A DNA stretch of 40,041 nt from a virus (IMGVR_UViG_2778261296_000006); one strand, 5' to 3'; counted from the first letter of the stretch, positions 2,983 to 33,203 are shown. Notes: generated by a model not told the origin, from the letters alone. Translations and numbers: made by a program.

Positions 2983-3336
2983 TTATGCCTCGCTTGTTAC
3001 AGTCGTCTGGCCGTAGATTGTGTCAATGGAGGAGGTGAAGGTAACGCGGCGACTGGTGCCGTCATAATTGGTATCAAAGGAAAGAATCGACAGAACGCCC
3101 GGTGTGTCCTGTATGCGTTCGCGTATAGCCAGGATGTAGACGTCAGAACGCTGCTTACCCAGCACTGACTGGACATACGGCGTGCCTTCTGTCAGGTCGA
3201 GAAACCACTGACCTCGCCACAGCTCGAAACGGGTTTTTACGGCCTGGGCAACGCACTCCGGGCTGTCGATAAGGAAGGTGTTGTCACCCTGCCCGAAAGT
3301 GTAATCGCCGTCAGCATCTTCGCGTCGGTATCGCAT
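2983..3336 (-). CDS. baseplate wedge protein (gp25/gpW-like)
   Basis: 117-aa ORF between the spike and J-like genes. Size and position fit gpW/gp25-type proteins. Confidence 0.45.
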   Translation of the reverse strand: MRYRREDADGDYTFGQGDNTFLIDSPECVAQAVKTRFELWRGQWFLDLTEGTPYVQSVLGKQRSDVYILAIRERIQDTPGVLSILSFDTNYDGTSRRVTFTSSIDTIYGQTTVTSEA

Positions 3337-3339
3337 AAA

Positions 3340-3438
3340 TCACCACCAGCGTATAGCGCTAATAACGCTTGACAGACCGAATAAAAAGAACACGGCCCAG
3401 ATGAGGAAGAATTTCCAGTTGGGTAGTTTTTCGCCCAT
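3340..3438 (-). CDS. small hydrophobic membrane peptide (32 aa)
   Basis: ATG at 3438-3436 preceded by GGGAG about 9 nt upstream. Translation MGEKLPNWKFFLIWAVFFLFGLSSVISAIRWW is a single TM helix. Stop at 3342-3340 lies 4 nt before the start of the next gene. Not in the supplied ORF track (under 60 aa). Confidence 0.3.
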   Translation of the reverse strand: MGEKLPNWKFFLIWAVFFLFGLSSVISAIRWW

Positions 3439-3512
3439 GACTCGCAACTCCCGTATCAGTTTGCTAAAATTAATCACATATTCTCCCTTGCTATCCTCAA
3501 GGTGCAGAAAGT

Positions 3513-3549
3513 AAAAAGCCCCGAAGTGTTAGCGCACCCGGGGCTTTTG
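3513..3549. terminator. bidirectional rho-independent terminator-like hairpin
   Basis: AAAAAGCCCCG...CGGGGCTTTTG: GC stem flanked by an A-run on one side and a T-run on the other, directly downstream of the spike gene stop (3565). Confidence 0.5.
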
Positions 3550-3564
3550 TCTGTTTGGTAGTTT

Positions 3565-4305
3565 TTAATTAGGCGCGGTAGTATTCCCGCTGCCATTCTG
3601 CACACCGCCATGGGTATGCTGGATGAGGCTCTTACCTCCAGCCTTCACATCGTTAGTCACCGTCACCGGCCCAAGCATCGTCGCAGTACCGCCACTTTCG
3701 CCCATTCCCTGAGACAGATTGCCATTAATCGTTACGTTGCCGTTCAGCGTGATAGTCGGGGATGTGATTGTCGTTCCACCTTCAGCCGTAGCCGTGAGCT
3801 GGCCCGGTGTTTGAACGGTGATGTTATGTCCTGCGGCAACCTCTACGAACGCCGCACCATCATCGGTTCGCAGCTGCGCGGCGCTGGTACTGATACCGCT
3901 GATTTTCTGTGCTTGCGACTGCGGGCCAACGATGGCGAACGCATCAGATAAGTCATGCTGTCGCGGATCGACGGTCTCCTGAACGCCGCCGCTCTGCCAC
4001 CAGAAATCGATGCAACGGTCGGCAAAGAGCAGCAGGCACTCGTCGCCTTCTTTAACCGGAAAAGTCAGCGTACAACCGCCGCCACGCGGGAAGATAACCG
4101 GCACATCCACCAGCGGTTTTAATTCGGTGGAGCCATCGCCAACGATACCGCGAAGCGCTACCTCTACCGTGCAGGTAACAGTATCAGGATCGAACGACTG
4201 AATGATGCCGGGCATCGCTACGCGCATCTGGGTAGACACCGAATCGGCAATGGCCTGCGCGGTCTGCTGCTCACCGCCGATCTGTGATTGAGTTGGAATT
4301 GGCAT
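3565..4305 (-). CDS. baseplate central spike protein (gpV / Mu gp45-like)
   Basis: Start taken at ATG 4305 (MPIPTQSQ...), because the longer track ORF would run across the terminator at 4317-4346. Gly/Thr-rich beta-type C-terminus ending in a His-rich tip (IQHTHGG), as in spike apex proteins. Confidence 0.5.
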   Translation of the reverse strand: MPIPTQSQIGGEQQTAQAIADSVSTQMRVAMPGIIQSFDPDTVTCTVEVALRGIVGDGSTELKPLVDVPVIFPRGGGCTLTFPVKEGDECLLLFADRCIDFWWQSGGVQETVDPRQHDLSDAFAIVGPQSQAQKISGISTSAAQLRTDDGAAFVEVAAGHNITVQTPGQLTATAEGGTTITSPTITLNGNVTINGNLSQGMGESGGTATMLGPVTVTNDVKAGGKSLIQHTHGGVQNGSGNTTAPN

Positions 4306-4316
4306 AAAAACCCCAT

Positions 4317-4346
4317 AAAAAAAACCCGCTCGGCGGCGGGTTTGTG
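4317..4346. terminator. bidirectional rho-independent terminator
   Basis: AAAAAAAACCCGC-TCGGCG-GCGGGTTTGTGTT: 8-bp stem (AAACCCGC/GCGGGTTT) with an A-tract upstream and a T-tract downstream, immediately after the stop of the 4350-4895 gene. Confidence 0.55.
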
Positions 4347-4349
4347 TTA

Positions 4350-4895
4350 TTAAATTCGCTTCATCTTTTCTGGGTGGAAATTGGGACACCAACTACACCC
4401 TTTACTTACTGCCAATGCTTGTATTTGGTCAGCCAAACTAAATGGCAATTTATCGGACACTCCGCCTTCCCACCCCCTAAGTAAACGGCAAGGTAAAAGG
4501 TAGTTGCCCGGGTAGTTAGAAACGCATTCGCAATAAGACTGCTGATTGTTGGCTTTTAGTGATCGAGCATAACATCCAAGAGAAGATGATAACTCCTGAA
4601 CATTTACAACCAACTCACCGTTAATAAAGGCTTGAACGCCAGTAATTCCATACACCAGATAACATAGGTTTGCAGCTCTTGATAGTTGATCAGGCGTTTT
4701 ACTAAAGGACGCTAAATGGAATTTTTTCCCTGCTATCTCACCAATTTTATTTACATCTGAAAGCTCAGCAATGGCTACAGCCATTGGATAATTTTTTGCC
4801 GTCGAATGAGGAAAAACAATGGTGATTACAAAGTTATCATCATTTAGAGATGCCAGATCCAAAGGGCCAATAGTTGACAGTCCCTTACCTGCCAC
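4350..4895 (-). CDS. hypothetical protein, AT-rich cargo (Cys-rich C-terminal half)
   Basis: 181-codon ORF with a GTG start at 4895 directly abutting the upstream stop (TGAGTG); an internal ATG start is possible. Visibly AT-rich versus flanking tail genes. No family recognised. Confidence 0.4.
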   Translation of the reverse strand: MAGKGLSTIGPLDLASLNDDNFVITIVFPHSTAKNYPMAVAIAELSDVNKIGEIAGKKFHLASFSKTPDQLSRAANLCYLVYGITGVQAFINGELVVNVQELSSSLGCYARSLKANNQQSYCECVSNYPGNYLLPCRLLRGWEGGVSDKLPFSLADQIQALAVSKGCSWCPNFHPEKMKRI

Positions 4896-5240
4896 TCATT
4901 TCACCTTTATACAATCATAGGTTGCATACTGACGCGGCGCATTCATGCTGGCTTGCAGCCACTGGGCATTGAGAATTATCTTGCCGTTTCGATTGATGTA
5001 CTCAAGACCAACCCATCTTCCAGGCTGATCGGTAGCCATACGCCAATCCATCTTGATATTGTTATAATCGCCTTTGTTTTTCAGGAAGGTGATTTTTTGC
5101 ATTTCTGGCTTTGCGCCATTGATTCTGGCTAAGCCATCATCTGCCCAATGGATTTTAAAATCACCACATTGCTGATCCGCAAAAGCGGGTGCTGATATAA
5201 GCACCGCGAACACGGTAACAGTGCAAAGTAAATGTCTCAC
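4896..5240 (-). CDS. small secreted protein with N-terminal signal peptide, AT-rich cargo
   Basis: GTG start at 5240 with GAGGTG RBS 5 nt upstream. N-terminus RHLLCTVTVFAVLISAPAFA-DQQ looks like a Sec signal peptide with an AXA cleavage site. Two Cys (near N- and C-terminus of the mature part). No family recognised. Confidence 0.45.
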   Translation of the reverse strand: MRHLLCTVTVFAVLISAPAFADQQCGDFKIHWADDGLARINGAKPEMQKITFLKNKGDYNNIKMDWRMATDQPGRWVGLEYINRNGKIILNAQWLQASMNAPRQYATYDCIKVK

Positions 5241-5252
5241 GGCCCCACCTCA

Positions 5253-6317
5253 CTAATTCGTCGTCCCTTGCATTGCTTTCGGGCTATAAAGATCACGAGC
5301 GCCACGCGCAAAACACATCAAATCCATGTACCACGCCTGACCTCTGGTGTCGCCAGTATAGTCGATAGCTTTGACGATATAAACGCCATCCGTCGCAATG
5401 CTGGCAGCCTGTGACGTCGTGCCGGTCAGCACACGGTTGCCGTTCTCTTCTGTTTCGGTGATACGCCCGGGCGACTGTGCTATTTCGCTATTGCCGAGCG
5501 TGGCGCGGTACACCGAAGCCTGATCGAGCTGGATAAGACCATTAATGCGGATGTTTGGGTTTATCAGGCACCGCACGTTTACGCCGCCGCCCATTGTCTG
5601 TTGCGGCATACCGATCAGGCCAGTATTGGCATTCAACACAATGGCTTCGTGAATATATTTATCCTCCGGCACCATCTGGACCCGACCATCCACCAGTTGC
5701 CATGTCGCTTTGCACTGCGCAGCAATATTATCCATCACGTTGCGGCTGGATGAGTAAATCGCGCGGCCACGAGGAAACACGGTATCAGGAAAATCGCCGG
5801 TAATGCCCTGTGTCACGCCGAACGCGTTGAAATCCTGCATCGTCGCCCGGTGCAGATCCGCAACGGTATAGCCAGCGGCAAGCGTGGTGATGGTGGTCGC
5901 ATAGAGGAACGCTTCGTGATCACCAATGGCCTGAATCAACACCCAGGAATCCGTAATGTTGTCCTTCCCGGTGACGGTGAAGCGAATATCACCGTCAAAA
6001 ATCAGGCCGTAGTTCTGACCGTTCACCTGCCCTATCTGGTCTGGTGAAATCTCCCGGGACACACCAACCTGGCTCGCATCAACATCCGGCGCTATACCGT
6101 CATACCCGGCAATGATGCGAATTTTGGCAAACTCCTGCCCAAGTATCTTGTTCGTGGTATCGGTCGAAAGGTTGTAAATTTTCACGTTCGCCACGCGCGG
6201 CCAGCGTGTGTCTGCCCACTCGATCTGGAACGTGACCTTAAAGTTAGACAGGGAAACGCCCTGCCCGTTCTGGTCCAACAGTTGCAGCTCAAAATGGCGC
6301 ATCCAGTTAAGAGACAT
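5253..6317 (-). CDS. tail/baseplate hub-like protein (gpD-like position)
   Basis: 354-aa ORF between the tape-measure-proximal small genes and the spike. Positional inference. Confidence 0.4.
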   Translation of the reverse strand: MSLNWMRHFELQLLDQNGQGVSLSNFKVTFQIEWADTRWPRVANVKIYNLSTDTTNKILGQEFAKIRIIAGYDGIAPDVDASQVGVSREISPDQIGQVNGQNYGLIFDGDIRFTVTGKDNITDSWVLIQAIGDHEAFLYATTITTLAAGYTVADLHRATMQDFNAFGVTQGITGDFPDTVFPRGRAIYSSSRNVMDNIAAQCKATWQLVDGRVQMVPEDKYIHEAIVLNANTGLIGMPQQTMGGGVNVRCLINPNIRINGLIQLDQASVYRATLGNSEIAQSPGRITETEENGNRVLTGTTSQAASIATDGVYIVKAIDYTGDTRGQAWYMDLMCFARGARDLYSPKAMQGTTN

Positions 6318-6319
6318 TT

Positions 6320-6625
6320 CTACTCCTGTACGAAAATGAGGTGGCTGTATGTGCCGAGGTTGGTTTTGGTGGGCTCGTCTGGTGCGCCCTTATCGGTCGC
6401 CACCACCAGCGCGCCATCAATGCCAAGCTGTGGATATTGTCGTAAAAGGTTTACGCCGGTCAGTAGAGGTACGCCAGAGAGAAGCGCGGCACCGCCGCTA
6501 TCCATCACGTCCATAATCCAGCCAGCCGCATCACGCCAGATGATCCTGAGTGTATACGTGGTATTGCCCAGCAAAACGCGGAACTGCTGATTGTCAGGAG
6601 AAAGCGGTATTTCGTTAAACTGCAT
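6320..6625 (-). CDS. tail protein (hypothetical)
   Basis: 101-aa ORF tightly packed in the tail operon. Confidence 0.35.
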   Translation of the reverse strand: MQFNEIPLSPDNQQFRVLLGNTTYTLRIIWRDAAGWIMDVMDSGGAALLSGVPLLTGVNLLRQYPQLGIDGALVVATDKGAPDEPTKTNLGTYSHLIFVQE

Positions 6626-18600: not shown

Positions 18601-20222
18601 CAGGCCTGTCTCCCTAGCAGCTCCCAGATGTTCAGGGCTGAATTCATTGGCGCGTAGCTGATCATCACCGAGTCGGCGAGGTTCGGCGACTTGGTGCCAT
18701 CAGGCTGTTTATCAACAACGATTTTCCCCACGCCATTAATGGAGTAGGTCGGCTGCGACAGCTCAATGATGAGTTTGTCTTTGCTCGCCATGGCGCTGCT
18801 GATTGAGATGATTTCGTCCGGGTTGTAGGCCATGCCCTCAACCACGGCGCGATAGGTGTTCTGGAAAAGCTTGCGTAGCCACCACCAGCTCTGGGCCTTG
18901 GCGTTGGCGAAGAAGTCCTTGTTCAGGCGTGCGGCCTGTCCGTTGTCCCCGCGCACCGCTTCATCGTCCGGATCAAATACCGCGCCGCTACCACGAAACG
19001 GTGTGGCGAGTATTGACGGTCGGCGCGCTGCGTAACGCAGTTCGTTGATGGCGCGCGCATCGCCGCGAACGCCAGCACCCAGGCCGTCCTCGTCGAAGCG
19101 AAACTCTTCGAGGTTGTCCTGTTCGCAAAAGCCGAAGACCTTCTCAACAGACTGGTAAATGTCGCTGCCAACGCCGGACCATTCACGCACGTTCTCCAGA
19201 AGGAAGCCGTGACGGGTCGAAAAGGCATTTTTGTCCCGGCCTTCGTCGGCGACGTCCATCGCGCCCAGTCGCTTGCCCGTTGGCTGAATACCAAGTTTGA
19301 TATGCGCGTCGACGGTAGCCTGTACCCAGTCGGACGGGATCAGGACGCCTTCCGCAGATGCGCTGTAGTTCAGGTCAAGTTCCTGCGCCACCACCACCGG
19401 ATTGTCGATTTTCTCGCACTCCCTGCGATACCACTCTTCATCCTTGCGCGGGTCATCTCGCCAGTGGAATGTGAATACTGGTATTTTTCCGCCGTGGCGC
19501 TTCTGCGCGAACGGGTTCGCCATGCCATTAACCGAGCTCAGGTCAATACGGCAACGGGTGGTTTGCGACAGCGCCGCATCAATCAACAGAGGACGCTGGA
19601 GGAATGCAGCTTCATCCACCAGGTAGAGCGTGGTACGGTCACCACGTCCGATATTGTCGCCAGCCTCGCCTTTGATAACCGCGCCAGTATCTGGAAACTC
19701 AACGCGCATATACGGCGCATGCTTCTTCTCGTCCCACGAACCACGAAACTCGATGGGCAGTGTTTCCACGAACTTTCGCGCCTTCCAGAACAGCGCCTTC
19801 GGGTCACCGGTGCTGTCGACGTATTCCTCTTTACGGGAGCCGAAACCGATAACCATTTCTTTGTTGAAGAGACAAAGCGAGCAGGCCAGCCCGATCGCGG
19901 TCCAACTGAGCCCCATTTCGCGGCTCTTTTCGGTGATGCCGTTCTCCAGTCGTTCGCGCCGCTCAATGATCCAGTGAATCCACTCTTCCTGTTTCGGGAA
20001 CAGCAGAAAAGGGATTGTGACCGGCAGGCCATAATCGATGTTACGCGGGTCAGTAGTCATACCCCAGTCGATGATGAACTGTGCCGGGTTGGTGCGGTAA
20101 AACTGCTTTAGTGCTGGCAGCATTTCAGGGTTCTGGCGAATGCGCTGTAAGCGCTCCATCCGCCATTCAAAAACCATCTGGTAATCAGGGTTTCTGAAAT
20201 CGAATTCAAACGGAAGAGGCAT
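18600..20222 (-). CDS. terminase large subunit
   Basis: Start taken at ATG 20222 (MPLPFEFDF...). Deviant Walker A-like [10 protein letters not shown] and Walker B-like LYLVDEAAF segments. Size and position fit TerL. Confidence 0.7.
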
Positions 20223-20293
20223 AAACAATTCCAGGCATTGAGTTTTTGCGTAACAAAGTTGATATTGTTTATGTACCAATTACAGGAGGTTTT

Positions 20294-20506
20294 ATGACAC
20301 CAGCAGTTAGCGCTAAGTTGTTGGAATTAACCAACGACCTTAACAACGAAGTAAAATTGTCTGCAATTTATGCTCTCGGCGAGAGTGCTTCAGCAACGCC
20401 AGCTCATGTAAATCGCTTACTTGATTTATCTTCGGATCTAAATCACAACGTCAAAGTCGCTGCAATTAAAGCTCTTGGCCGTATTACTCGACCAAAACAA
20501 GCCTAG
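20294..20506 (+). CDS. small protein with two HEAT-like (PBS-lyase type) repeats
   Basis: ATG at 20294 preceded by AGGAGG. 70 aa with two tandem repeats, LLELTNDLNNEVKLSAIYALGE and LLDLSSDLNHNVKVAAIKALGRI. AT-rich by eye. Opposite strand to the flanking terS/terL genes. Confidence 0.45.
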   Translation: MTPAVSAKLLELTNDLNNEVKLSAIYALGESASATPAHVNRLLDLSSDLNHNVKVAAIKALGRITRPKQA

Positions 20507-24738: not shown

Positions 24739-24834
24739 GAAACGAAGGCATTAACCCATCGTTGGGACAAAATTAACACAGATTCGGGAAAAGTAAATAG
24801 CCCAAGACAAAATCATAGGCTATCGCTATAGGCG

Positions 24835-25617
24835 TTACCGCGTTATCTGCTTAAGCTGTTTTTCGGCCCAGGACTCTTCGATATCAAATTTCGTGATCAG
24901 CAGGTCGTAGAATGGCTTAACAGACTTTTTCCAGGTGTCCAGGCTAATGGCGTCAGTAATCTGGCATACAGCAGCATAGGCTTCAGTCGACGGAAGTCGT
25001 TCATACCCACGCCCTCCGCAGCGCTTACAGTCAGCCAGAACAGGAACGCCCTGTTTCTCAGTAAGAGCCTGGTTCACTGCCTTGCCGCGCCCATGGCAAT
25101 CACTGCAAGAAGCACTAACCACACCAGAGCCATTACACTTTTTGCATAGCACTTTGATGGATTCTTTGACCTTCACCATCCCGGACACGGTCATTTTCCC
25201 TTCTGGCTTACGGAATTTATTGGTAAACACGTCAGCCTCAATGAAGCCCTGACCGTCACAACAATCGCACTGCTTCACGCTGGCAGCGCTGCGGGAATAG
25301 TCCTCAAAAGCGAAGGTGGCCAACTGGTGCATCACCTGAGGTTTAACCGCGGCACCGAGCTTACGCAGTGCGGCAACCTTGTCGCATTTTGTCATCGCGT
25401 ACTCAGCCAGCAGACCGATCGCCCGATCCCGGTCGTTATTGCTTATGCCCATCTTGCCGAGGAAGGCGCTGTAACCCATTGCGGCGCGTTCCTGCGTCAT
25501 GCCCATGGCAGCCATTATGTCGGTACCGGTCAGTGAATCGGAGGCGGTAGCGCGCGGAGAATCGCTAATCAGTGTGGATTTAGCGAAGTGGTATTTCACT
25601 GTGTTTTCAAGGTTCAT
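24835..25617 (-). CDS. late-gene antitermination protein Q-like
   Basis: 260 aa with multiple CxxC zinc-finger pairs (CDCCDGQG, CKKCNGSG, CSDCHGRG, CKRCGGRG). Position between the nin-like genes and the lysis cassette. Confidence 0.6.
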   Translation of the reverse strand: MNLENTVKYHFAKSTLISDSPRATASDSLTGTDIMAAMGMTQERAAMGYSAFLGKMGISNNDRDRAIGLLAEYAMTKCDKVAALRKLGAAVKPQVMHQLATFAFEDYSRSAASVKQCDCCDGQGFIEADVFTNKFRKPEGKMTVSGMVKVKESIKVLCKKCNGSGVVSASCSDCHGRGKAVNQALTEKQGVPVLADCKRCGGRGYERLPSTEAYAAVCQITDAISLDTWKKSVKPFYDLLITKFDIEESWAEKQLKQITR

Positions 25618-31294: not shown

Positions 31295-31336
31295 TTAAGC
31301 CTGAGACTTAATTTATTGTCAAGCCTGAGGCGAATT
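31295..31336. promoter_or_regulatory. OR-like operator/promoter region (divergent PR/PRM)
   Basis: 17-mer TTAAGCCTGAGACTTAA at 31295-31311 and related GTCAAGCCTGAGG at 31318-31330. A TTGACA hexamer on the minus strand (31322-31317) overlaps the sites and points toward the cro-like gene. Confidence 0.5.
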
Positions 31337-31370
31337 TTCAAGTTTAAGAAAAAGGCTTATTCTTCTAACC

Positions 31371-31757
31371 ATGAAAGAGAAAACCGTACTTAATCCGATA
31401 CTTGTCGAACGCCTTTCAGAGCTGAACGGGCGCGGTATGACCAAATCCGATATGGCCAGGGTTGCTGGGGTAACCCCGCAGTCTGTGAACGGCTGGTTTA
31501 AAAAAGGCGTGATCAGCAAGAAATCAGCTCTCGCTGTCGCTGACGCAGCTGGCGTGTCTGTGCCTTGGTTACTCGGTGAGGATGTCGGCGAGAAGGACGG
31601 ACTTAAGCCGGACGAACAGCGCCTGCTTGAGCTCTACCGCCAGCTGCCAGAAGAAGAGCAACAGAACATGCTCCGCATCTTTTCGATACGTCTTAAGGAA
31701 CTGGATGAGCTGTATGAGAAGTACATGAAGGGGCGGATTCGCTCGCAGGGGGACTGA
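31371..31757 (+). CDS. cI-like prophage repressor (HTH; no S24 peptidase domain)
   Basis: 128 aa. N-terminal HTH (MTKSDMARVAGVTPQSVNGWFKKGVISKKSALAVADAAGVSVPWLLGED), then a short helical C-terminal region. Too short to carry a LexA-like autocleavage domain. Divergent from the cro-like gene. Confidence 0.6.
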   Translation: MKEKTVLNPILVERLSELNGRGMTKSDMARVAGVTPQSVNGWFKKGVISKKSALAVADAAGVSVPWLLGEDVGEKDGLKPDEQRLLELYRQLPEEEQQNMLRIFSIRLKELDELYEKYMKGRIRSQGD

Positions 31758-31842
31758 ATCGCTTTAGGTTTGTCCTGAATTTTTAGTTCCCATGAGACAA
31801 TGATGTCTTTACTGGGGGGTGATTCCGCCATTTATGTTAGAT

Positions 31843-31870
31843 TGAAAAAAACTATCAATTTAATTAATAT
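31843..31870 (+). promoter_or_regulatory. sigma70-like promoter of the immunity-region cargo gene
   Basis: TTGAAA (31843-31848), 16-bp spacer, TAATAT (31865-31870), about 28 nt upstream of the cargo ATG. Confidence 0.45.
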
Positions 31871-31898
31871 TTATCACTACTACACGGGATGTTTTGCA

Positions 31899-33203
31899 AT
31901 GACAGCTGAGATTGTTGTAATAAATAATACTGGAATCGCCCTTGCTGCTGACTCTGCAGTCACCACAGAGCATAATAGATTAGTAAAAATAAATAATAGT
32001 GCGGAAAAACTATTCGAACTATCTAAACACCATCCCGTGGGGATCATGATTTATAATAATGCGACACTGGGTGGCGCACCGTGGGAACTTATAATTAAAT
32101 CCTATAGAAAACAATTGGGGAAAACTAGTTTCCCTACCATTAAAGAATATGTTAATGACTTTGTAAAATTCATCAATGGTAACTCAGACCTTATAACAAA
32201 TGAAATGAGAGAGGCTTGCGTTATAAACCTTGTTGTTGATAACCTCAAAGGTTTGATGAGATACATTAATGATAATAATGTAGTAAACTATTTAACAATG
32301 AACCCCGCCGTTGAACTCGACAATGTTATTTTTCAAAACATAGTTAAGCAAGCCTTTGATTTAGAGATAGAAATCTTAAGGAATAATCTCTTTTTCGAAG
32401 GGTTTGATACAGAAGAGTTTAATGATGCTTTAGCATATATACAAGATTTAATATCGCCATACATTTCATCAATTATTGTTCTTGATAACTGTGAAAATAT
32501 ACAGCAAGAGCTTATGGAAAAAGTCATATTATATTCCACTTGTTTAATTTTCAAAGTCCATGCTAGTCGTACATATTCAGGGATTGTTATAACAGGTTAT
32601 GGAGAGGAAGAATATTACCCTTCCATTTGCACTCTTCATATCTACGGCATTTTTAAAAACAAATTGATGATCCATAATATTAATGATAAATCCCATAATA
32701 AGGTAACCAATATGGGGTTTGTTATACCATTTGCTCAAGAAGATGAAGTAGTAACTTTCATTGATGGGTGCAACCCTAACATCATTAATTTTAACAGAAC
32801 TCTTACAGAGGAAGTTTTTGATCGGCTTAATCATTATGTTTCTAGCAATATTTTCCCTGCAATGAACAATGGAGTACTAGCCAATCACTTCTCCAGTGAA
32901 ATTGAGGAACTCAAAAACGTACTTTTACAAGATCACGATACTAAACTTGAAAGCTATATTGTTAATAACCATACAAATAAAATGATATCGATGTTGCAAT
33001 CACTTGGGAAGGCAGATCTTGCGTATATGGCCGAATCATTAGTGAACATCACTGCATTCAAAAGAAAAGTATCACATGATTATGAAACTGTCGGTGGGCC
33101 TGTTGATGTCGCTGTGATATCAAAAGTTGATGGATTTGTTTGGGTAAATCGTAAACACTACTTCCCTAAAGAGCTAAACTCTAACTACTTTAATCGTCAA
33201 TAA
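31899..33203 (+). CDS. AT-rich cargo protein of unknown function; candidate defence protein with Ntn-hydrolase-like N-terminus
   Basis: 434-aa ORF (MTAEIVVINNTGIALAADSAVTT...), strongly AT-rich versus flanking genes. Lies between the repressor gene and OL/PL with its own promoter and terminator. Start chosen at ATG 31899 because the upstream in-frame extension overlaps the promoter. Confidence 0.5.
   Translation: MTAEIVVINNTGIALAADSAVTTEHNRLVKINNSAEKLFELSKHHPVGIMIYNNATLGGAPWELIIKSYRKQLGKTSFPTIKEYVNDFVKFINGNSDLITNEMREACVINLVVDNLKGLMRYINDNNVVNYLTMNPAVELDNVIFQNIVKQAFDLEIEILRNNLFFEGFDTEEFNDALAYIQDLISPYISSIIVLDNCENIQQELMEKVILYSTCLIFKVHASRTYSGIVITGYGEEEYYPSICTLHIYGIFKNKLMIHNINDKSHNKVTNMGFVIPFAQEDEVVTFIDGCNPNIINFNRTLTEEVFDRLNHYVSSNIFPAMNNGVLANHFSSEIEELKNVLLQDHDTKLESYIVNNHTNKMISMLQSLGKADLAYMAESLVNITAFKRKVSHDYETVGGPVDVAVISKVDGFVWVNRKHYFPKELNSNYFNRQ

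Follow-up and report, generated by a model that had tools for sequence, protein, structure and literature searches.

We analyzed the two genes that lie between the baseplate hub and spike genes (positions 4317 to 5252) of a 40,041-nucleotide (nt) stretch of viral DNA, IMGVR_UViG_2778261296_000006, here called the window, which is 100% identical to a prophage of Escherichia coli LR-33. The hub-spike junction of SEN34-type contractile-tail modules is very probably an insertion hotspot for morons, with a resident gene for an exported protein (gene A), a position behind it at which the cargo is swapped (filled here by gene B), and a terminator belonging to the slot that would be bypassed by a Q-type antitermination protein. 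On balance, we read A and B as two independent accessory genes in this hotspot, with protection of the lysogen against other phages as their likeliest function.

The hub-spike junction as an insertion hotspot

An earlier note on this DNA, made from its sequence alone, had proposed an inserted, nonstructural moron with its own terminator and had suggested looking for adjacent hub and spike genes in related tail modules. Such adjacency was found. In Providencia phage PSTCR3 and Bordetella phage IFTN9, nothing separates the two genes, which overlap; neither A nor B is therefore required for building such a baseplate. The overlap, seen in these distant relatives, is the ancestral arrangement. In Burkholderia phage Magia, the junction holds an opposite-strand gene for a signal-peptide protein and no A, and Hafnia phage yong1 and phage EKP1 (with hubs 63% and 51% identical, respectively) carry other cargo there, again without A. 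These five modules lacking gene A are otherwise complete. Apart from yong1 and EKP1, the sequenced phages with a hub at least 55% identical have an A homologue right behind it.

In the enterobacterial relatives, the junction consists of gene A, a variable position, and then usually a terminator ahead of the spike ribosome-binding site; this slot is found among E. coli, Citrobacter, Klebsiella, Salmonella, Serratia, and Yersinia prophages. In other phages, at least nine unrelated genes occupy the position after A, many of them encoding signal peptides or transmembrane (TM) segments. Gene B fills this position in the window. E. coli ET791 has an open reading frame (ORF) of 53 amino acids (aa) there, several E. 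coli strains have an opposite-strand gene for a DUF4236 membrane protein, and Klebsiella ST405phi1.2 has a zinc-ribbon, TM, and tRNA_anti-like protein. SEN34 carries a membrane-anchored protein akin to the EKP1 cargo, Mulock a TM and Cys-rich one, Yersinia YP3 one of 266 aa, Citrobacter phage Omnitron a signal-peptide protein of 128 aa, and Escherichia phage vB_EcoM-683R1 (L007, 3824-4336) a cytoplasmic protein of 170 aa. The last of these carries an R-x4-H motif (IRNNLFHG) that resembles HEPN nucleases; it had no Pfam or PADLOC match. None of ten slot cargo proteins other than A and B matched a PADLOC defense model.

Comparison with three close E. coli prophages located the edges of the exchange. 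Nucleotide homology is 96 to 99% from the hub to within 2 to 4 nt of the stop codon of A, is lost across gene B, and is back within or at the end of the terminator. This break and return mark gene B alone as the exchanged unit, a discrete cassette. Gene A also differs among tail modules that are nearly the same: across prophages with hubs at least 96% and spikes 94 to 100% identical to those of the window, the identity of A ranges from 61 to 99% (for example, 98%, 72% in Omnitron, or 61% in L035 to L039). In the Citrobacter-type loci that carry B, A and B are 98 to 99% identical and the hub just 92 to 93%, from which it follows that A and B can also travel as one block.

In the window, hub, A, B, and spike all lie on the minus strand, within a tail and baseplate operon whose local order is tape measure (SLT domain), Dit-like protein, plug, hub, A, B, hairpin with eight T residues, spike, W, J, DUF2612, and tail fiber genes. 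The hub has a weak Pfam E217_GP41 match and is labeled "hypothetical" in RefSeq. The features discussed here are the following (window positions).

3565-4305, minus strand: gene for the baseplate spike, 246 aa, flanking the slot on the right (Pfam spike N-domain, E = 2e-41; GpV Apex motif; RefSeq annotation)
4314-4343, minus strand: intrinsic terminator closing the slot (stem 4322-4343, T-run 4314-4321; last position 9 nt ahead of the spike ATG)
4350-4895, minus strand: gene B, 181 aa, cytoplasmic by prediction, phrog_16260 (GTG start, AAGGTG ahead)
4896-5240, minus strand: gene A, predicted exported precursor of 114 aa, phrog_3443 (GTG start, GAGGTGG ahead)
5178-5240, minus strand: signal-peptide coding part of gene A, residues 1 to 21 (by inspection; predicted cleavage after AFA)
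5253-6317, minus strand: gene for the baseplate hub, 354 aa, flanking the slot on the left (phrog_196 baseplate hub, E = 5e-82)
5355-5383, minus strand: candidate sigma-70 promoter, TTTATA-17-TATACT, inside the 3' end of the hub gene, about 115 nt upstream of gene A
24769-25551, minus strand: gene for a Q-type antitermination protein (RefSeq annotation of the identical E. coli LR-33 region)

Both ORFs lie where the earlier note had placed them, as does the TGAGTG junction at which the TGA of gene A and the GTG of gene B abut; the length of A, given there as 113 aa, is 114 aa. The insert had been described as visibly AT rich, and its guanine-plus-cytosine (GC) content is indeed uneven with its surroundings. 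Gene A has a GC of 0.446 (0.46 at third codon positions [GC3]) and gene B 0.414 (GC3, 0.335), against 0.53 to 0.57 (GC3, 0.54 to 0.64) in the eight tail genes that flank them, sheath to J; DUF2612/I, one gene farther downstream, has a GC of 0.50. Among equal-sized segments across the 40-kb window, A plus B falls in the lowest 3.7% by GC. The pattern recurs in seven relatives (gene A, 0.45 to 0.47; cargo, 0.38 to 0.44; hub and spike, 0.50 to 0.58); gene A is consistently about 8 points under the tail genes. Neither A nor B matched a tail or baseplate family in Pfam, NCBIfam, or PHROG. The locus thus has three features of a moron in the sense of Juhala et al. (2000), namely, absence at the same junction in relatives, deviant composition, and its own downstream terminator, and the proposal of inserted nonstructural DNA is upheld by the hub-spike overlap elsewhere, the deviant GC, and the lack of a baseplate family match.

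Two observations concern the relatives themselves. Between its plug and hub genes, PSTCR3 (L030) has an AT-rich gene (2463-2936; GC, 0.36) for a 157-aa signal-peptide protein, followed by a terminator-like hairpin, which indicates that adjoining junctions of the same module can also be moron sites. Phage EKP1 (L029, OM284015) bears an Elizabethkingia label, yet its tail-module proteins are 51 to 75% identical to those of enterobacterial prophages, and the host assignment looks doubtful.

The slot terminator and antitermination

The terminator stem (AAACCCGC/GCGGGTTT, 4322-4343) has 8 bp, 5 of them G-C, and a 6-nt loop and is followed by eight T residues. By itself, the hairpin of the window is modestly better than shuffled sequence (free energy [dG], -12.1 kcal/mol; z, -1.7), and we accept it as real on account of its comparative conservation and not its energetics. 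A perfect GC-rich hairpin with at least five T residues, at most 43 nt upstream of the spike start, was present in 10 of 13 occupied slots (11 of 13 if one G·U pair is permitted), against a background of 0.004 per 70 nt for the same pattern on the gene strand of the same loci. MAFFT left the stems out of register, and a per-locus hairpin scan was therefore used instead. At least six stem sequences occur across these slots (CCCGC, CCAGC, CCCGCC, CCCAC, CCCGTC, and GCCGC), and the slot is closed by the same architecture whatever the cargo. Where hub and spike overlap, the terminator is absent. The terminator belongs to the slot and not to gene B. Its earlier description as bidirectional needs trimming: a hairpin and eight T residues are present on the gene strand, the tail on the plus strand is GTGTTATT, and nothing is transcribed from there.

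Only 8 nt, containing a GGGG Shine-Dalgarno sequence, separate the T-run from the spike start. There is no room for a promoter in this gap, and the spike gene and everything downstream must hence be transcribed through the terminator. The regulation of the prophage is lambdoid, with a Q-type protein, O/P-type replication genes, RusA, and a holin/endolysin/Rz lysis cassette. In lambdoid phages, polymerase modified by Q passes intrinsic terminators all along the late operon. A terminator passed in this way is also part of the moron architecture as first described (Juhala et al. 2000 and Cumby et al. 2012, as cited in PMC10884400 and 10.1101/2024.10.15.618418). By analogy, we infer that the slot terminator is read through in late transcription, and the Q-type antiterminator would explain how it is tolerated inside the late operon. 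With this protein encoded and the same architecture closing the slot in relatives, a terminator in the middle of a tail operon loses the unexpectedness once ascribed to it.

The candidate promoter inside the 3' end of the hub gene is the sole promoter-like site in positions 3400 to 6500, and eight relatives have a similar site in the equivalent position. The sequence there also encodes a conserved hub peptide (DGVYIV..YTGDTRG), which confounds the conservation of the site with coding constraint.

Gene A encodes a predicted exported beta-barrel

The gene A family comprises 79 homologue clusters, all from Enterobacterales. Gene A matches phrog_3443, a PHROG family of unknown function, over its full length (E = 9e-45). 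Scans of Pfam, NCBIfam, and PADLOC returned nothing for it, and a profile search of Protein Data Bank (PDB) sequences gave just a marginal avidin stretch. The Sec-type signal peptide that had been proposed was borne out by inspection: MRHLLCTVTVFAVLISAPAFA, with cleavage predicted before DQQ, consists of a basic n-region, 15 hydrophobic core residues, and an A-x-A motif ahead of D22. This n-h-c architecture, with a freely varying sequence and mostly A-x-A followed by D, is kept in 29/29 aligned homologues. Within the family, no segment varies more than the signal peptide (2.34 bits per column versus 0.65 in the barrel core), which was modeled as a low-confidence helix. The product of gene A is thus predicted to be exported by the Sec pathway and to be a substrate of signal peptidase I; it has no lipobox.

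The mature protein has about 93 aa, and structure prediction gave an eight-stranded beta-barrel (predicted local distance difference test [pLDDT], 81) whose first hairpin (residues 22 to 45) is its most variable part and varies more than the core. The two Cys residues reported earlier are those of the mature protein (C25 and C110), and they are invariant in 29/29 homologues, which share 25 invariant positions overall; the precursor has a third, C6, in the signal peptide. To judge from its conservation, the C25/C110 pair would be typical of a periplasmic disulfide. In SEN34 (L005, 3429-3770), the homologue SEN34_20 is annotated in GenBank/RefSeq as a truncated protein of 77 aa; a TTG start right behind the hub stop codon yields an A homologue of 113 aa in which both the signal peptide and the Cys pair are intact. 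We also considered A as an inhibitor of lysozyme or transglycosylase (MliC/PliC/Ivy-like). This had no sequence or specific structural support and was kept as a likeness of working only.

The position of A would suit a structural gene. It lies within the late operon, directly behind the hub in nearly all sequenced phages with a hub at least 55% identical, and is often translationally coupled to it through overlapping stop and start codons (as in L006, L007, and L020). That A is a true tail or baseplate assembly or ejection factor, with only B a moron, is nevertheless highly improbable. The signal peptide and the Cys pair are conserved, while virions assemble in the cytoplasm; A is missing from the otherwise complete modules of yong1, EKP1, PSTCR3, IFTN9, and Magia; and its GC sets it apart from the tail genes. 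The alleles of A do not covary with hub or spike (61% identity for A where the hub is 96% and the spike 100% identical), which argues against a structural partnership. Conservation in syntenic position together with homology to baseplate components had been named beforehand as what would speak against an insertion. Of these, A shows the synteny in related modules, but it has no baseplate homology and carries an export signal.

Gene B encodes a Cys-rich, predicted cytoplasmic protein

Gene B has six close clusters, and a profile search of 1.8 billion representatives returned 371 relatives of about 200 aa (representatives at 50% identity). It matches phrog_16260 (E = 2e-29; residues 21 to 127 plus a second stretch), again a family of unknown function. 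No match was found for B in Pfam, NCBIfam, or PADLOC, for its profile against PDB sequences, or for 45 diverse family members in a Pfam scan. The earlier statement that no family was recognized therefore holds for Pfam, NCBIfam, and PADLOC and gives way in PHROG, where both proteins have a family. The Cys-rich C-terminal half noted previously is there, with six of the seven Cys residues of the protein. Four of them (C108, C122, C136, and C170) are invariant in the 45 diverse members and C167 is present in 37/45; the invariant four suggest a putative metal site. The structure model has a ferredoxin-like N-domain, and there is no export signal.

Close homologues of B, down to 57% identity (Serratia), always lie behind an A homologue in the slot, with the abutment kept. 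Members of the wider family (distant homologues of about 25 to 36% identity) have no A with them and lie mostly right behind prophage repressor genes. At six distant-B loci, B overlaps or directly follows an HTH_3, HTH_19, Arc, or CI-type repressor gene. In L021, L025, and L026, it overlaps an HTH_3 repressor-like gene at the 3' end and is divergent from a RecT early operon; it overlaps a CI/S24-type repressor gene in five Bordetella avium phages (L010) and an Arc repressor gene in Klebsiella phage ST899phi17.1 (L011); and it lies two genes behind an HTH_19 gene in L027. In L023, B is an opposite-strand cassette between spike-like and W-like genes. Its repressor-operon context looks like the genomic signature of a lysogen-expressed gene.

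Several distant B genes (L023, L025/L026, L010, and L011) have nonhomologous envelope proteins beside them (a signal-peptide protein of 111 aa, a multi-TM protein of 192 aa, a two-TM protein of 229 aa, and a signal-peptide protein of 133 aa), which could be a coincidence or a recurring cytoplasmic-plus-envelope arrangement. Two assignments for B were rejected. As a periplasmic effector matured by a radical S-adenosylmethionine enzyme (HXS system), B lacks the CxxxCxxC motif and is too small. An ImmA-type anti-repressor protease, considered because of the position after helix-turn-helix repressors, would have an HExxH motif and a Peptidase_M78 match, and B has neither.

Because the stop and start codons abut and the Shine-Dalgarno sequence of B lies inside A, the two genes could be taken for a cooperating pair, whether for exclusion, toxin-immunity, or sensing and effect, and the earlier note had read them as such a coupled cassette. 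The abutment kept in every close-B locus, the possible movement of A and B as a block in Citrobacter-type loci, and the signal-peptide or multi-TM proteins often found beside distant B genes fit this idea. We nevertheless consider a pair quite unlikely. Most phages and prophages with A have no B, with at least nine other neighbors in its place, and the B family is found without any A-like protein, so the obligate co-occurrence of toxin-antitoxin or toxin-immunity genes is not seen. In close relatives, moreover, the recombination breakpoint falls exactly between A and B, and an exported protein cannot neutralize a cytoplasmic toxin.

Possible functions of A and B

If the two genes protect the lysogen against other phages, as we favor, the following course can be envisaged. 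In the lysogen, a weak promoter in the 3' end of the hub gene, or elsewhere upstream, would transcribe A and B, and the terminator would keep this transcript out of the spike and downstream tail genes. During lytic growth, Q-modified RNA polymerase would ignore the terminator, leaving the late operon intact, and A and B would be made too. In the periplasm, A could obstruct a receptor or a step of entry and so exclude superinfecting phages; the place of action of B would be the cytoplasm, and the two need not cooperate. This division of protective roles, with A in the periplasm and B in the cytoplasm, is drawn by analogy and put forward tentatively, at somewhat less than an even chance.

Several points weigh against protection. 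Neither A nor B matches a PADLOC defense model (no hit at E ≤ 1), Pfam, NCBIfam, or a PDB sequence. The candidate promoter matches the consensus at 9/12 positions and lies within conserved coding sequence. For the C-terminal domain of B, the model is poor (pLDDT, 40 to 55), and the putative metal site of B is read from the conserved Cys residues alone. That A is often coupled to the hub suggests a function late in the lytic cycle and sits less well with a role confined to the lysogen. T5 Llp masks receptors on debris, and the frequency of the coupling suggests that A may likewise be wanted late in lytic growth, for instance, for such masking.

The main alternative to phage protection is a phage-unrelated fitness role, in which A, B, or both would be lysogenic-conversion or host-fitness factors, for example, for envelope modification, serum or stress resistance, or ligand binding by an avidin-like barrel. 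Lambda Bor and Lom are model lysogenic-conversion factors, morons are known to carry host-fitness factors (reportedly reviewed by Taylor et al. 2019), and the hosts here are gut and clinical Enterobacterales. There is, however, no Pfam avidin match and no virulence-family match, and the strong divergence of A alleles, in tail modules that do not otherwise differ, is a trait of arms-race interfaces more than of housekeeping fitness factors. The relatives of B, in turn, sit in repressor operons, the classic place of exclusion and abortive-infection genes such as rexAB. We regard a fitness role as unlikely, if worth keeping in view.

Carried further, the protective reading would make A a new kind of periplasmic superinfection-exclusion protein of temperate contractile-tailed phages and B the founder of a new single-gene, metal-dependent defense family, typically cotranscribed with prophage repressors. 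In this bolder form, which is a long shot, A would be a disulfide-stapled barrel whose hypervariable N-terminal hairpin binds the incoming tail tip (the spike apex or the tape-measure SLT domain) or its receptor. If this is true, the allele of A, and not the tail of the prophage itself, would set the exclusion group, and the hub-spike slot would be a discovery reservoir for envelope-acting anti-phage genes.

Other features of the prophage

A second, smaller insertion (3340-3564, minus strand) separates the spike gene (ending at 3565) from W (starting at 3336), genes that directly abut in most relatives. It holds a terminator-like hairpin (GCCCCG...CGGGGC) plus five T residues at about 3513 to 3544 and a hydrophobic ORF of 45 aa (3340-3477; GTG start, GGGAGA Shine-Dalgarno sequence) about 84% identical to SEN34_23. 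An Rfam scan of positions 3200 to 5500 gave just subthreshold leader-like hits at the two terminators. Elsewhere, a gene for a hypothetical protein of 467 aa (31734-33137, plus strand) lies directly downstream of a helix-turn-helix repressor-like gene (31305-31691), thus in the cI-adjacent position that in lambdoid prophages often holds exclusion or abortive-infection genes. An ORF of 86 aa annotated as "HEAT repeat domain" (20180-20440, plus strand) lies in opposite orientation between TerL and the DUF2280 gene and is perhaps a further small moron of the late operon.

Novelty and significance

Morons and late-operon hotspots are well known as a kind. In the literature searched, we found no description of the hub-spike junction as such a site, of its conserved terminator, or of either protein family. 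Prophage moron hotspots are a productive source of new anti-phage and host-fitness genes, and this slot is a useful one: it is compact, widespread, and bounded exactly by the stop codon of A and a conserved terminator, and its cargo consists mostly of small exported or membrane proteins that current defense catalogues miss. The divergence of A alleles amid identical tail modules makes A a directly testable candidate for envelope-level exclusion. The B family, with 371 representatives, no annotation, and recurrent placement beside repressors, would be a new repressor-linked prophage function. The locus is also a clean natural example of a terminator retained within the essential late operon of a Q-regulated myovirus-type prophage.

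Comparison with known systems

The slot resembles the morons of lambdoid phages, reportedly described for HK97 and HK022 (Juhala et al. 2000), in having extra genes between adjacent late structural genes, deviant composition, a terminator of its own, and Q antitermination. It differs in its site, the hub-spike junction of contractile tails, which recurs in phages of many host genera. HK97 gp15, the product of a tail-operon moron, is reportedly an inner-membrane protein that blocks the DNA entry of superinfecting phage (Cumby et al. 2012). Like gp15, A would be an envelope-directed moron product; there is no sequence or fold relation, and gp15 sits in the inner membrane, whereas A looks like a soluble exported barrel and B is predicted to be cytoplasmic.

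Some superinfection-exclusion proteins of the periplasm or outer membrane are also encoded beside tail genes: T4 Spackle, a helical protein, inhibits the incoming gp5 tail lysozyme, and FhuA is blocked by two lipoproteins, T5 Llp and lambdoid Cor. In T5 and in Cor phages, the gene lies beside tail-tip or receptor-binding genes. A is likewise a small, predicted exported protein encoded beside tail genes. The tape-measure protein of the prophage carries an SLT lytic transglycosylase domain, which is a conceivable periplasmic target for A. A has no homology to these proteins, lacks a lipobox, and is a predicted beta-barrel in contrast to helical Spackle. Its resemblance to the eight-stranded beta-barrels of avidins and calycins is at the fold level only (identity below 12%, no Pfam avidin match, and A about 25 residues shorter).

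In P2-like phages, the hotspots old/tin and Z/fun carry anti-phage systems (Rousset et al. 2022, PMC9122126; iLund4u preprint 10.1101/2024.10.15.618418). As in the hub-spike slot, these have a fixed place between conserved genes, one of them adjoining baseplate or tail genes, and their cargo varies among related prophages. The hub-spike slot belongs to another phage lineage and junction, and it takes single small cargo genes, many of them for envelope proteins. Unlike the P2 hotspots, it opens with a gene that is resident, A, and ends in a conserved terminator, and none of its tested cargo matches a known defense model.

The tail assembly blocker Tab of Pseudomonas aeruginosa phage JBD26 is a late-operon moron that the prophage expresses and that gives protection from other phages (PMC10884400). 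Tab has 83 residues, is encoded between the terminase genes, and has no sequence relation to B, whose domain has four invariant Cys residues and whose family is found mainly in repressor operons. As a small moron protein of no known family from a late operon, Tab nonetheless offers a model for a cytoplasmic moron such as B may be.

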